A DNA stretch of 64,000 bases from Eledone cirrhosa. Its lineage: Eukaryota. Both the position numbers and the translations under genes were made by a program. Shown here piece after piece: positions 403 through 60,982 of the stretch. Positions within the stretch are counted from its first letter, which is position 1; each line of letters opens with the position of its first letter. Below the pieces are notes generated by a model. It had not been told where the DNA came from and did not search any database. It saw nothing but the letters and a program-made list of their open reading frames with translations. The stretch spans positions 310,868,001 to 310,932,000 of the forward strand of contig OZ024742.1 in the NCBI GenBank assembly GCA_964016885.1, in the 5' to 3' direction.

Positions 403-1568
403 TTAATGTATTTAATACAATAACAGAGATAGTTTAAAACTAAACTCTGACTGGTAACCATCTCACTCAACAAACATTAGGTTATATTAAAATATAAACC
501 CAATTTAAGTGTTTGGGGAGCTAACAATATGTATAATGTGGAAAAACCAGTTGTATTATTTTATGAGATATAATTAAAGTTAAAATATATCTCTCTTTCC
601 AAACAATTGTTTCATTATAAGTTTTCTACAAGTTTGGGAGAATGTTTCCAGTTTATGTAGAAGCCCAATATATATTCATGTAAGAATATATTTAGGTGGG
701 CACTTATAAATCATCAGTGGAAGCCCATTAAACATTGATATAAGAAAACAAATTTCTTACCGCTGTCAAAAATCATGTCCGTAAAGTTGCTCTCTCTCAC
801 CTCGAATGACCGCCAAATTTGAAATTCCAGCAGTTTTTGACTGAGGAAGTATCATAGCGACACGAAGCGGGAAGGGGAGACAACCCACGAAATGAGGAAA
901 AAAATAATATACACGCGGGTTAATTAGTTTTTTTGAAAACATTATCAATCCAACGTGTTTAAGAACTCAATTGAAAATAAAAAAATAAATATATGCTTGT
1001 ATAAATTACACACGCATATAGATATTTTCTTAGGCTAAATCAGAAGTTGTACCCGAATAAGAACCGCAGTAAATGCAGAAAGTTATGCTATAAAGGGCAA
1101 ATGGGAATATAATTCTCCGGCCGAATTATTAAGAGTAAAATATAAAACACACGCGGGTTAATTAGTTATTTCAAAACCAATATTAATTCCTCGTGTAAAG
1201 AACTCAATTAATAAAAGAAAATAAATACATATATGCATGTAATTATATACGTAGGCATATATATATATTTTCATAGGCTAAAAAACAGAGAAGTTACAAC
1301 CAAAAAAAGCCACAATATTTCACAACAGTAAATACGGAAAGTCAAATTCATAAGGTACCTGGAAATAAACACCTCTGGCCAATCAAGAGTAAATATTTAA
1401 TACAATAACAGAGATAGTTTAAAGCTAAACTCTGACTGGTAACCATCTCACTCAACAAACATTAGGTTATATTAAAATATAAACCCAATTTAAGTGTTTG
1501 GGGTGCTAACAATATGTATAATGTGAAAAAACCAGTTGTATTATTTTATGAGATATAATTAAAGTTAA
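403..1568 (-). mobile_element. Retrozyme-like HHR repeat, family A (985-bp unit plus partial second unit)
   Basis: TTTAATACAATAACAGAGATAG at 411 recurs at 1396 (period 985) and the match runs to ~1568. The end abuts (TA)n, it contains the HHR at 597-722, and an inverted second copy lies at 10600-11195. No credible ORF. Confidence 0.7.
597..722 (-). ncRNA. Type I hammerhead ribozyme (family A)
   Basis: Minus strand: TTCCA-CTGATGA-tTTATAAG..long insert..CTTATAAt-GAAA-CAATTG-TT-TGGAA. Stems I and II pair and stem III is palindromic. Confidence 0.75.
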
Positions 1569-1756
1569 TTGTTTCTACTTTTGGCACAAGGCCAGCAATT
1601 ACCCAGTACATTACTGGTACTTTATTTTATCGACCCCGTAAGGATGAAAGGCAAAGTTAACCTCAGCGGGATTTGAACTCAGAATGATAAGGGCCGTAAC
1701 TCTATGCGTCAAAGCATGGCGTCCGACCCTCTACCGATACTGCCAATCCACCGCCC
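1566..1756 (-). mobile_element. tRNA-derived SINE, full length (family S1)
   Basis: A-box-like TGGCAGTATCGG, B-box-like GAGTTCAAATC and body CATCCTTACGGGGTCGATAAAATAAAGTACC. 20-bp TSD GAGATATAATTAAAGTTAAT at 1550-1569 and 1757-1776. Confidence 0.9.
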
Positions 1757-4125
1757 GAGATATAATTAAAGTTAATGTATGTATTTTATATATATAAATG
1801 AATAAATATGTGTATATATATATGTGTGTGTGTGTGTGTGTGTGTGTGTGTGTGTGTGTGTGTGTGTGTGTGTGTGTGTATGTGTGTGTGTGTGTGTGTG
1901 TGTGATGAGTAGTTGTATGCATTATTCTATATGTAAATTTCATATCAGTACATAAGCAGTACGGGTTTTAACCGAAGCTGCGAGAAATGTGTAGGTAAAC
2001 ATGCATATCTATATATATACATACATATGTAGACATATAAATTGTTTTTGTATCTTAAAAAGATGAACAGCTTGACTCAAGCTTATGTTGTTTTTTTTTT
2101 TGGCCAGCATTAGAAATTATCCCACAATCCAAAGGGAAATACCTAACTAAAGACTTTATAAATCCAGTAATTGTGGCAGTAATAGAAAACTGATCTGCCA
2201 ACTTGTATCATTTTAGTGCTCATGCCAGCAGCTTATTAATATATACATTACATCATGAGCAGTTAAATCTCATACTGTTTATATTCGGATAAGAATTGGA
2301 GCTGTTAACTTTCTATATATTTATATATAATTGCAAAATTGGCAACAGATGAGACAGAAAAGAGTCAAACTTACAGGAACGGAAACGGTTAGGTGACTAG
2401 AGGACATAAAATGACACAGATGACAAAAATAATATGAATAGGACAAACAACGTTGTCCTCTTCGGCCATCGGAAATGGACGTACACAGTTTCAAGTTCTG
2501 GAGAATATAAACACTGTCTTAGAGTATTTTTCAGGACGAGGAACGGGACAAAAATTATATATATATATATACATATACATCGAGAGAGAGAGATAAGATG
2601 CTGGTAGTTAATCCCAGGGAAGCCATTATTCAACTTATGATCTCTTATAATCAGGATATATATATATACACACACACACACACACACACACACACACACA
2701 CACACACACACACACACACACACACACACACACACATATATATATATATATATATATATATATATATATGGGACAGAATGTATGTGAAAGACTGATTTAT
2801 AGACATGTATATCTAGAATACTAATGTTTTGGGTTATAGTTTTTATTCAAATTAAAAATAAACTGATATGTATTAACTGCTTGGGGCTTGTTTACTTACC
2901 AGTATCTACAACTTCCTTGGTTCATGTTTAGTTTTCTGTCTGGGAAATGAACTGAAGCCAGTCTGGTGCTACAATCTCGCTGAAATTTCAGCTGTAATAA
3001 GCGAAAATATCAGGGAACTTCGTGATGAGGCAGAGGCCTCTACATGGCTGCTTCATCTGTTAGATATAATAGCCAAATCTCTCGTATTTCATCCTACCAA
3101 ATGAAATATTTTGGTTAATACACTAACAGGGAAATATTTCAGGATGGTCAAGGTTTGAATATCTCTGCTCATAAGTCTGTCCAGTCAAGGTTTATGGGAC
3201 TAAAAAACAACAATAGCGACGCTCAACATTTAATTGATCTTTCTGTCCCTACCGAATCCTTCGTTTATAATGTAGTGCCTCATGAATAATTGTACTCAGT
3301 AAATTAAGTCTGCTGAACCGTTGTTAATATTGCAGCTGTTTAACCCCTATCAATAGTTAGCCTTGATCAAGAAGATCGATGATCCATCAAGTGCACTCTG
3401 GTCATAACTATCACATATTTTTATATCGCTAGTACAGCATCATCCAATTAAAATTTGATTTGTGAATTGAAGAATATATTGCCGATATGTCTTACAGACG
3501 GTTGAAACATATAACGATTCCATTGTACTTGTGACGACTTAGCTTTGCTTTTAAAGTCATACATCTCATCTCCAATTATCACGATATTTAGGAATTCAGG
3601 TTCTTTGTTGAGTAAATAATACAGTACCTTACTCGTTGGCTACCTGACATCGGCTGACACACCCAGTGAGCTCGCCAAAAAGTATGTGACTCCACATTGC
3701 ACTCTTTTGTCTCACTGGTGCTCTTATAAAAACAAATTAATCGGATACCTTTTAGACAAACTCGTATATAGATTATAGATAATCAATAGCTGTTCTTCAG
3801 AGAATACCTTGATAGTAGCAATATCATTACAGCTGAACAAACAGCTAGGAATAAAGAAGATTGGGGGAGACCTGATTAACTTCTAATCAAAAAAATTCTA
3901 AAGTTAGTTTTGCGGTGGAATAGGAAGAATTTGATCGCAGTTTAGCTGGATTACAAGAAAGATTAAATGTAATCTGAGTTTTTAGAATATTAATAATAAT
4001 ATTTGATTCATTTGTAATTATGCAAACAACCCTCATTTTTAAAGCCATATCAGTAGAATGAGCCCCTCATTCTTGCTCTTGTGTTGGCATGTAAACAGAA
4101 ATGCAGACATTAATGTTTCTGGTTA

Positions 4126-4210
4126 TTTCATCCTTACGGGGTCGATAAAATAAAGTACCAGTAATGAACTGGGTAATTGCTGGCCTTGTGCCTAAAGTAG
4201 AAACAATTAA
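4126..4210 (+). mobile_element. 5'-truncated S1 SINE
   Basis: 3' half of S1, with TSD ATTAATGTTTCTGGTTATT at 4109-4127 and 4206-4224. Confidence 0.85.
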
Positions 4211-59094: not shown

Positions 59095-59390
59095 TTACGG
59101 AGTTGACGGACCCAGCATATTTATTAATATATATATATATATATTAACACTCATACATACATATTCAGACGGATTCTTGATATAATTCGGTGTATTATAA
59201 CACAAAACTGATATATCAGCTAACCTTACTAAATTCCTACTGATACAATTTTAAAACTTTTAAATTCTTTCATTAAGAACGGCTTCGTTTATATATATAT
59301 ATATATATATATATATATATATATATATATATATATATATATATATATATATATATATATAAACGAAGCCGTTCTTAATATATATATATC

Positions 59391-60505
59391 AGCCACATCA
59401 TGGTACGACAACCAGAGATACCAGAGTGTCATGTTTGTGGACGCCACCCCTGGAGGGGAATTAGCTAACCAGTGTAGAAAGGCCCTGAGAAAGACCCACT
59501 TAAAAATAAAGGTGATAGAAAAGCCAGGAACCACCATAAAATCCCTGATCAGCAAAACCTACCCTTTTAAGAAAACCCACTGTACCAATAGGAAATGTAT
59601 CATATGTAAAGTGAACCCCCGGATAAACTGTAAAACTAGAAACGTAGTCTATAGCATAAGATGTACAGAGGGTACTTGCAGAAACATGACAACAACATAC
59701 ATAGGTGAGACAGCTCGTAGCATAGGTGAAAGGATAGACCAACACTGGGGGGAACTAAAAGGACGAAAAAACGGGTCAGTACTATACGAACATGCTAGAC
59801 AACAACATGACGGTAACATAGACAACATAGAAATTAGAATAATATCTAAACATAGAAATGACCCAGCAGATAGGCAAATCAGAGAGGCCAGTGAAATAGA
59901 AATTAGAAGACCAAAGCTAAACAGAAAGAATGAGTGGAACAACAACAACACCCAAACAAACAACACTGACCTAAGAGAAGTATAAATAAGTAAATAAAAT
60001 TAAATAAAATAAGATAAATAAATACATACACAAGCACAATAACAACAAGCACATCAACACACACTAGTCACCCAGCAAACATAACACTATACACACTAGT
60101 CACACAGCAAACATAACACTATACACACACGCAAACGCATGCGCAAAGAAGACAAAATAAAATAAACAAACAAGCAAATAAATAAATAAATATATAGACA
60201 GACTGAATGAAAAATGGCGTAGACATACAACACAACAGGAGGAAAAAATATAACACCACTGACGATGTTGCAGATGTGCAACGAAAGATTTATGTAAATT
60301 ATGTAAACTATATATATGTGTTTGTGTCTATATTGTATCTGTATTATTTTTGACCGTCGGTCAGTCAATGGCAACATTGAGGACCGAGTAAGTTAGATCG
60401 CAGATATAAAAGACAACGAGAAGCGAAAACCAACCAAACAGTGAGTGTGTTCTGTTATTAATTCTGGCAATATAACACAAATATGACCCTCCCCATGTAT
60501 AACAA
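59391..60505 (+). mobile_element. Second, 5'-truncated copy of the Penelope-like element
   Basis: Near-identical reverse complement of ~47930-49005, with (TA)n on both sides. Confidence 0.92.
59431..59985 (+). pseudogene. GIY-YIG endonuclease domain of the truncated Penelope copy (open frame, no RT)
   Basis: 184 aa differing at only a few residues from 48411-48965; CTNRKCIIC, NVVYSIRC, YIGET. Confidence 0.88.
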
Positions 60506-60601
60506 TATATATATATATATATATATATATATATATATATATATATATATATATATATATATATATATATATATATATATATATATATATATATATATAT
60601 A

Positions 60602-60982
60602 TGAGTCCCGGTTTCAATCGGTGGTAATGTACTCAATACATTTGTAGAGTATATACAACATTTAATTTAGAAATGGCTTCTACAGGACTCGAACTGTTTC
60701 ATTCAAGGGATATCATCATGATTTCCATCAAATGACACAGTTCTAGTCCTGTAGAAGCCATTTCTATATTACATTTTATATATTTATTTAGGTTTGTTGG
60801 TTCACCACTGGATAGAATTGGTCATTCCGTATGGTCAATCTCGATGTAATATTATGGAGAGTACTCAACGTAATGCAGCTCACCCGTCTTCGTTTGTGTA
60901 GTTGGTGGTGCGAGTACGGAATTAATTATTATAATAAAATAACAGGAGGCTGGACAAGTCCAGCCTCCTGTTATTTTATTAT
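60602..60982. repeat. Island between (TA)n tracts with two inverted repeats
   Basis: ~36-bp IR at 60668-60703 / 60731-60766 (minus arm reads GAAACAGTTCGAGTC, like the 3' half of an HHR) and a perfect hairpin at ~60929-60982. Confidence 0.6.

Follow-up and report, generated by a model that had tools for sequence, protein, structure and literature searches.

The window analysed here is a 64,000-nt stretch (310.868–310.932 Mb of contig OZ024742.1) of the 3.0-Gb animal genome of Eledone cirrhosa. Its GC content is 36%, and it is rich in (TA)n tracts, between which lie many islands carrying hammerhead ribozymes (HHRs) of about 12 families, together with pieces of Penelope-like elements (PLEs) (Table 1). 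Very probably, the HHRs stand near the 3′ ends of several PLE families and of some non-coding tandem units; Penelope-type enzymes are likely to have placed these elements in (TA)n. The anatomy of the HHRs, the connection of three families, and probably a fourth, with reverse transcriptase (RT) and GIY-YIG endonuclease sequences, the TA flanks, and the two-armed shape of the insertions with its single tail are seen directly in the DNA. HHR and PLE cassettes occupy ~14.4 of the 48.2 kb of non-telomeric DNA in the window (element boundaries drawn by hand), in agreement with the proposal of a preliminary description of this DNA that part of the apparently unique spacer is ribozyme cassette.

Families were traced through 30 best-matching loci apiece, and 30 loci were then extended. 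In F3, the copies of which are 100% identical over 171 nt, 6/30 loci continue upstream into a Hydra-type GIY-YIG endonuclease, and a 763-aa open frame at one of the loci contains the motifs DKT, YRDD, CxCx5C, CxxC, and CxH. A similar Hydra-type domain is reached at 3/30 loci of F7 (the HHR at 52727, with that at 32008 as a relative), one locus having an 890-aa frame that is 51% identical to F3 in the RT. Both families have the features of the Hydra clade, which was defined, with its HHRs and (TA)n insertion, by Craig et al. 2021 (PMC8557442): DKT, the CxCx5C linker, CxxC and CxH by the end of the C-terminal GIY-YIG endonuclease, an HHR near the 3′ end, and insertion into (TA)n. Judging from these diagnostic motifs, F3 and F7 are Hydra-type PLEs. 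The copies examined are longer than 3.5 kb and 5′-truncated; elements of the clade are generally shorter than 3 kb and have an N-terminal RWK motif.

F6 (53497, with a U3-A8 core) reaches a GIY-YIG domain with a Cx2-5CxxC linker at 2/30 loci. The same linker precedes the C-terminal GIY-YIG domain of family A, which also has an RT, and both are Neptune/Nematis-type PLEs according to this linker motif, the RT of F6 not being recovered. The family A copy in the window is truncated and frameshifted, and a 931-aa open frame is found at locus L241. The HHR-like motif of this copy is among the weakest in the window, and almost every copy of the family has a single stem I pair adjoining the core; inspection by eye gave no convincing fit of the motif to a type III or permuted form. 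Pfam gave only one weak match (RVT_1) for five PLE pieces in the window; the identification of the window PLEs rests on motifs and on the longer copies. At one of five extended loci of F13 (43274), the sequence 1.9 kb upstream holds a broken Hydra-type endonuclease with no TA break in between, which is suggestive only, F13 being probably the end of an autonomous PLE of its own. Asn-rich low-complexity runs occur inside the PLE open reading frames (ORFs) in the window (50700–51250) and at loci L233 and L241; such stretches are known from ORFs of rotifer Penelope elements (PMC3846280).

Inverted duplication is common among the islands, the two 3′ ends then pointing away from each other. In every PLE family, the 3′ end lies at one of two points, and the tail between them is 58 nt in A, 62 nt in F6, 83 nt in F3, and ~100 nt in F7. 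Exactly one arm bears the tail in 75 of the 77 two-armed insertions (F3, 24/25; F6, 16/17; F7, 21/21; A, 14/14); two have no tailed arm, and none has two. This is the form of insertion of endonuclease-bearing (EN+) PLEs, an inverted 5′-truncated copy with an optional tail at one end, as described in Craig et al. 2021 and in Arkhipova et al. 2013 (PMC3846280). The pairs of the non-coding family F5 combine one distal with one proximal end in 18/24 cases, the others having two distal ends (3), two proximal ends (1), or unclassified ends (2). Same-family neighbours point outward in 7/9 pairs of a genome sample of 80 evenly spaced 10-kb stretches from contigs C1–C14 (60 from the first three), which is systematic and not random.

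Table 1. HHR-bearing and PLE-derived features of the window. pLTR, pseudo-long terminal repeat; SINE, short interspersed element.
Feature	Position	Strand	Description
F1	404..1568	-	985-nt non-coding unit at 409–1393, preceded by a partial tandem copy (1394–1568) cut by a SINE; HHR 597–722 with 97-nt stem II region
F2 island	5851..6092	-	U3-A8 HHR 5923–6010; parent not found
F3, Hydra-type PLE, two-armed	6335..6766		HHRs 6459–6529 (-) and 6653–6723 (+); tail 6335–6420 on left arm only
Island	6866..7140	-	Doubtful U3-A8 HHR-like motif near 7010–7055, stem I nearly absent
F5	8294..8822	+	~430-nt non-coding retrozyme-like unit, 1.3 copies; HHR 8516–8558
F6b, two-armed	10059..10464		HHR-like motif at 10278, GCAA in place of GAAA family-wide
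F1, 5′-truncated	10601..11194	+	HHR 10883–11007, C3 to U
F7-related element end	31664..32107	+	HHR 32008–32063
Island	32180..32350	-	HHR 32215–32284 by relaxed descriptor; no second copy in the DNA examined
F5, partial tandem	39842..40546	-	HHR 40188–40230
PLE family A, two-armed stub	40632..40997		Tail on right arm
F10, two-armed stub	41027..41210		Only 3′ half of HHR left; fold-back within stem II
F11	41585..42384	+	599-nt unit with 201-nt direct repeat; U3-A8 HHR with long helix III, 42016–42148
F12, two-armed	42465..42759		Damaged HHR near 42607–42655
F13, 3′ end	43143..43990	-	HHR 43274–43358; Hydra-type endonuclease upstream in 1/5 extended loci
PLE family A	47931..51400	-	Broken ORF with RT and C-terminal GIY-YIG, ~48411–50700; pLTR with atypical HHR-like motif near 48112
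PLE family A, part of the preceding copy	51236–51400		Inverted pLTR piece and 58-nt tail
F7, Hydra-type PLE, two-armed	51619..52935		Damaged HHR 52727; tail 52831–52930 on right arm
F14, two-armed	53034..53282		HHR 53169–53233; stems I and III as in F3; own ORF not traced
F6, Neptune-type PLE, two-armed	53421..53785		Damaged U3-A8 HHRs on both arms; tail 53724–53785
PLE family A, 5′-truncated	59391..60504	+	GIY-YIG domain and pLTR with motif at 60252
F15, two-armed stub	60603..60930		Decayed HHR; family helix III 16 nt

The shape of the insertions may be explained by priming at both ends of a cut target. The endonuclease of the element would cut both strands of the self-complementary (TA)n, and each cut end would prime reverse transcription on the element RNA, one cDNA starting at the distal and the other at the proximal of two fixed internal sites 58–100 nt apart. 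The two cDNAs, usually short, would then be joined, often at a self-complementary spot. Such a course of events would yield outward-facing HHR pairs, TA at both sides, and the one-tail rule. As copying would begin 30–300 nt downstream of the HHR and would usually stop early, most insertions would retain little beyond one or two copies of the end with the HHR. F5 and similar non-coding units would make use of the PLE machinery. For the purified Poseidon PLE protein, which is predicted to be dimeric, it is reported that both strands of AT-rich DNA are cut and extended and that reverse transcription starts at two internal RNA sites bounding the tail (Frangieh et al. 2024, PMC11167929). Hydra and Neptune elements are described as preferring (TA)n (PMC8557442). 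Self-cleavage of the HHRs considered here is a prediction from the structure of the motifs, and the cutting is predicted to be weak, occurring as dimers via the palindromic helix III or with the help of protein; for similar minimal motifs, dimer cleavage in vitro is reported to be weak (PMC4209133), and the Poseidon HHR cuts only when the protein is present and is dispensable for insertion in vitro (PMC11167929).

A rather unlikely alternative is that a single cDNA bends back on itself at a palindrome and so serves as primer for the second strand, the endonuclease trimming one end so that a single arm keeps the tail. Self-priming was proposed for rotifer Penelope from palindromes at the inverted junction (PMC3846280), and among the 32 junctions of the present arms without gaps or extra bases, 14 overlap by at least 4 nt (2.7% under the null), many at a palindrome of 6–8 nt. 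The excess is inflated, since 8 of these 14 are F3 junctions located where the query began, and two come from the same locus. Self-priming fits poorly with the occurrence of the tail on either the long or the short arm and with the joining of arms of very unequal length by overlaps of 0–4 nt, and the in vitro PLE reaction extends both target strands (PMC11167929).

Several observations weigh against the proposed origin of the islands, or against priming at two sites, and should be noted. The best-matching loci favour young copies. The F3 query itself selected tail-less arms, and the one-tail count without F3 is 51/52. F5 departs from the one-tail rule in 4 of its 22 classifiable pairs, and gaps or extra bases stand in place of an overlap at 19/51 arm junctions. 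F1 carries no two-armed footprint, because it has no inverted arm at 30/30 loci and a single 3′ end. At the cleavage site, 21/29 F1 copies read through, and in F5 the starts of only 4/95 blocks fall within 25 nt of the site, with no pile-up. Four of the HHR-like motifs in the window lack a full core with an adjoining stem I: that at 7008 has almost no stem I, that at 10278 belongs to a family (F6b) with GAAA in 0/23 copies examined, and those at 48112 and 60252 keep the core, stem II, and GAAA but have a single stem I pair beside the core, as throughout their family. All but 10278 have 1–2 adjacent stem I pairs.

The possibility that HHR cleavage sets the 5′ ends of the insertions was considered and did not gain clear support. 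The first hint came from F1, in which 5 of the 12 copies longer than a unit start within 18 nt of the site, but a dedicated test gave no clear footprint: among 29 ends, 7 lie just past the site, 5 just before it, 16 farther upstream, and 1 later. The ends do pile up around the ribozyme (12/29 within 25 nt on either side); this cluster of ends extends to both sides of the site and coincides in part with TA-like microhomology. Ribozyme cutting thus does not appear to be what sets the insertion ends.

The preliminary description, with its plausible Penelope helper family in the window, can be read as making the islands mostly non-autonomous cassettes or retrozymes moved by one helper family of that kind. 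Some families fit such a picture. F5 (8516, 40188) is a ~430-nt unit in tandem arrays with periods of ~420–484 nt, and over 30 loci it has no linked ORF, its common upstream sequence being 466 nt at most. F1 (597, 10883) is likewise a non-coding unit, of 985–1000 nt, with mostly 0.4–2 units per insertion, and no parent element was traced for F2, F8, F11, F12, and F14. However, the single-helper picture fails, because the families of 6655 (F3), 52727 (F7), 53497 (F6), and probably 43274 (F13) are themselves the ends of coding elements, which are of at least two clade types. Moreover, the window PLE is broken, and nothing ties family A to the non-coding units, with which it has no sequence in common. 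We therefore consider the one-helper reading improbable. Two families have multiplied although their motifs are defective. F6b has GCAA instead of GAAA in nearly all copies, and it has spread with this probably dead core. In F10, which is also found at 43000–43128, the fold-back mostly falls inside stem II, and 24/26 distinct copies lack the 5′ core and have just the 3′ half of the ribozyme left.

The association with (TA)n extends beyond the window. Within 300 nt of (TA)8 are 37 of the 45 strict HHR matches in the genome sample, against 16.4 under permutation within stretches (maximum 26 in 200). For other tracts the counts are 2 against 3.3 (CA/TG) and 4 against 1.4, maximum 4 (GA/TC), and a SINE used as control has no bias (24/115 near (TA)n, 24.2 expected). 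The association is one-sided: (TA)6 occurs within 300 nt downstream of 40/43 measurable matches and upstream of only 15/41. Similarly, the 3′ end of family A meets a TA-rich repeat at 28/30 loci, directly or beyond the tail. The suggestion that the islands are short and bounded by (TA)n is borne out for TA, mainly on the 3′ side, and not for length throughout, some hosts being elements of 1.3–3.5 kb. The (TA)n tracts as landing sites of PLEs and retrozymes agree with the genome-wide association and with the origins traced above; a single system with a single helper does not.

Alternatively, (TA)n might not have been present as a target before insertion, but be made by the elements or have expanded next to them afterwards. 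In favour of this, internal TA dinucleotides are located right at the ends of the elements, and the TA lies nearer the 3′ than the 5′ side. However, the flanks are mixed microsatellites (TA with TG, CA, and GA) that vary among copies, TA lies at both sides of two-armed copies, elements are nested in the tracts of one another, and a preference for (TA)n is listed for Hydra-1_Obim in the Craig 2021 supplement. These features make a later origin of the tracts decidedly improbable.

Type I HHRs were searched for with a strict descriptor (core CUGANGA or UUGANAA, GAAA, and UH; stem I of at least 5 bp; stem II of at least 3 bp; near-palindromic helix III of 6–12 nt). There are 8 matches in the 48 kb of non-telomeric window DNA, and none in 300 dinucleotide shuffles with the microsatellites kept, in the reversed sequence, or with 17/17 decoy cores; shuffled DNA thus lacks a similar density. 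A relaxed descriptor gives 11 matches in the window against a shuffle mean of 0.03 (maximum 1), and the weak one among them, at 837–948, is left out of the intact count. When stem II was left free in the pattern, 34/37 distinct inner regions still close by at least 3 pairs (shuffle mean 8.2, maximum 16), and 28 sequence clusters keep one common fold. Helix III forms a perfect self-duplex for 5/5 window motifs tried (−3.2 to −12.9 kcal/mol), a result that is not independent because a palindromic helix III is part of the descriptor. An Rfam scan of the window (E up to 1) gave no hammerhead family in the best 150 of 160 matches, only microsatellite-driven microRNA and small nucleolar RNA, and weighs neither way. 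The idea that repeat DNA rich in AT and in hairpins has given rise to the motifs by chance, with which this Rfam result and the degeneracy of some listed sites would be compatible, has a negligible likelihood and is already refuted for the strict matches, since shuffles, reversed sequence, and decoy cores yield 0–1 matches in the window and in 0.8 Mb, reversed-pattern controls over the whole genome yield 0, and the same fold is kept by the 28 clusters.

Judging from sequence and fold, most motifs in the window are genuine type I minimal hammerheads. Of the ~18 HHR or HHR-like motifs in the preliminary description, 10 appear to be intact and 4 are the doubtful ones described above; the other 4 are damaged, but belong to families with intact members elsewhere. 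The motifs at 597, 6655, 8516, 32008, 40188, 43274, and 53169 are intact by the strict descriptor; 5923 (U3-A8) and 32215 are so by the relaxed one, and 42016 (U3-A8) has a long helix III. This helix, in F11, is stable, and the ribozyme is predicted to fold as a monomer, unlike the other motifs in the window. Damage consists of C3 to U at 10883 (F1) and U4 to C at 52727 (F7), a damaged stem I at 53497 (the family being intact at loci L237/L238), and a damaged core at 42614, for which one homologue is intact. In addition, the earlier list lacks the intact mirror HHR at 6459–6529 and the remnants of two further families at 41027–41210 and 60603–60930. The ~12 families bear out the claim of at least ten in number but not entirely in unrelatedness, as stems I and III are common to 6655 and 53169, and 10278 and 53497 align at 69%.

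The genome sample contains 45 strict matches in 28/80 stretches (0.8 Mb), or 56/Mb (bootstrap, 36–79), with 0–1 in five shuffles and 0 in seven decoys. Extrapolation gives ~170,000 strict HHRs in the genome (110,000–240,000), and the density in the window (8 per 48 kb) is ~3 times the genome average. Counts of exact patterns over the whole genome are 25,666 for F5 and 65,864 for the F3/F14 group, with a sum of 91,530 and reversed controls of 0 each. In the 0.8 Mb, F14, F6b, and F10 have 18, 15, and 35 matches, respectively. A descriptor for a long helix III adds nothing to the density estimate, because it gives 1 match in the sample against 0–1 for decoys. Published counts of minimal HHRs are ~2,000 and 1,300 in Schistosoma (besides thousands of canonical ones), 4,000 in coelacanth, and 9,000 in Xenopus tropicalis, and further counts are 5,000 in mussel and up to 120,000 in axolotl; these rest on other descriptors, so that the comparison with the present genome is rough. 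Our literature search, the coverage of which excluded most subscription journals, found no paper on cephalopod retrozymes and no count of similar size.

An HHR, (TA)n, and a Hydra-type element are already in print together for the octopus lineage, since the Craig 2021 supplement (PMC8557442) lists both a (TA)n preference and an HHR for Hydra-1_Obim of Octopus bimaculoides. Besides the motifs, F3 and F7 have the inverted truncated copy and the one-sided tail in common with that clade. They differ in exceeding its usual 3 kb (long 3′ untranslated regions and low-complexity inserts), in tails of 83–100 nt against 30–40 nt, and in very high copy numbers, and the HHR sequence listed for Hydra-1_Obim is unlike those of F3 and F7. 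A protein of Argonauta hians (P0022), named 'GATA zinc finger domain-containing protein 14-like', contains DKT and YRDD and matches the Hydra-type PLE proteins at 38–40% identity; it is probably a mis-annotated PLE ORF. F6 and family A resemble Neptune/Nematis elements and Poseidon PAc (PMC11167929) in the linker before the C-terminal GIY-YIG domain and in a tail bounded by two 3′ end points; they differ in that the HHR-like motif of family A is without a normal stem I, and the class here is assigned from motifs.

The HHRs themselves resemble the minimal ones of metazoan PLEs (Cervera and de la Pena 2014, PMC4209133) in the type I fold, the short palindromic helix III, the U3-A8 variant, and the many families per genome, with mostly single motifs or opposite-strand pairs 100–700 bp apart and few in full PLEs. 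The differences are in number (2,000–9,000 per genome there and at least 91,530 by exact pattern here, with different descriptors) and in the stem II regions of 50–100 nt in several of the present motifs. Metazoan retrozymes without long terminal repeats (non-LTR) and their presumed PLE helpers are treated in Cervera and de la Pena 2020 (PMC7229834) and in the preprint of Li et al. 2026 (10.64898/2026.07.22.740005), which sampled four invertebrates. F5 is like these retrozymes in that its tandem unit is non-coding, low in GC, and a few hundred bases long (~430 nt), contains a single type I HHR, and is dispersed as monomers to multimers alongside PLEs; it is unlike them in lying in (TA)n with the two-arm, two-end footprint of PLEs. 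F1, judged from its sequence, works like a retrozyme but is outside the described size, its ~1-kb unit being above 150–450 bp. The total in axolotl, up to 120,000 copies, is similar to that here.

Other repeats in the window are as follows. A degenerate (TTAGGG)n array of 15.8 kb (12130–27910, 70% matches) lies 68 Mb from the end of the 379-Mb contig, and is possibly a relic of a chromosome fusion; four contigs are 379–443 Mb, and the remaining ones looked at are 46–136 Mb. A 32-bp tandem array at 43993–45180 and 45280–45367 consists of 37 copies (95%) with a short inverted arm; homology with F13 reaches ~130 nt into it, and it may be an expansion within the F13 3′ region. An abundant repeat at 1566–1756 and about ten more places, with 115 copies in the 0.8-Mb sample, is presumably a tRNA-like SINE. 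The sequences at 34226–36767 and ~9000–9920 are presumably fragments of non-LTR retrotransposons, comprising three L1/Tx1-like 3′ ends adjoining (GATA)n tracts and one RTE/CR1-like piece, these labels coming from motifs.

The components of this system have been described before, including for Octopus, and what is notable is its scale and testability rather than a new kind of system. Two questions are touched, namely the origin of inverted one-tailed PLE insertions and whether PLEs move animal retrozymes. With ~10^5 young insertions in many families, some of them 100% identical and with long open frames, the genome offers statistics and reagents for both. As regards annotation, much of the DNA that lies between TA tracts and passes as 'unique' or unclassified derives from PLEs; the word ribozyme is absent from a recent repeat annotation of Octopus vulgaris. 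The extrapolated ~170,000 intact-looking HHRs would be denser per Mb than the published counts compared. We tentatively suggest, as a possibility held at somewhat less than even confidence, that the near-strict one-tail rule, in coding PLEs of two clade types and in a retrozyme, records the action of a Penelope dimer that primes at both ends of a cut (TA)n, starting from two fixed RNA sites. If this is true, the insertions would bear a direct footprint of the mobilisation of animal retrozymes by PLEs.

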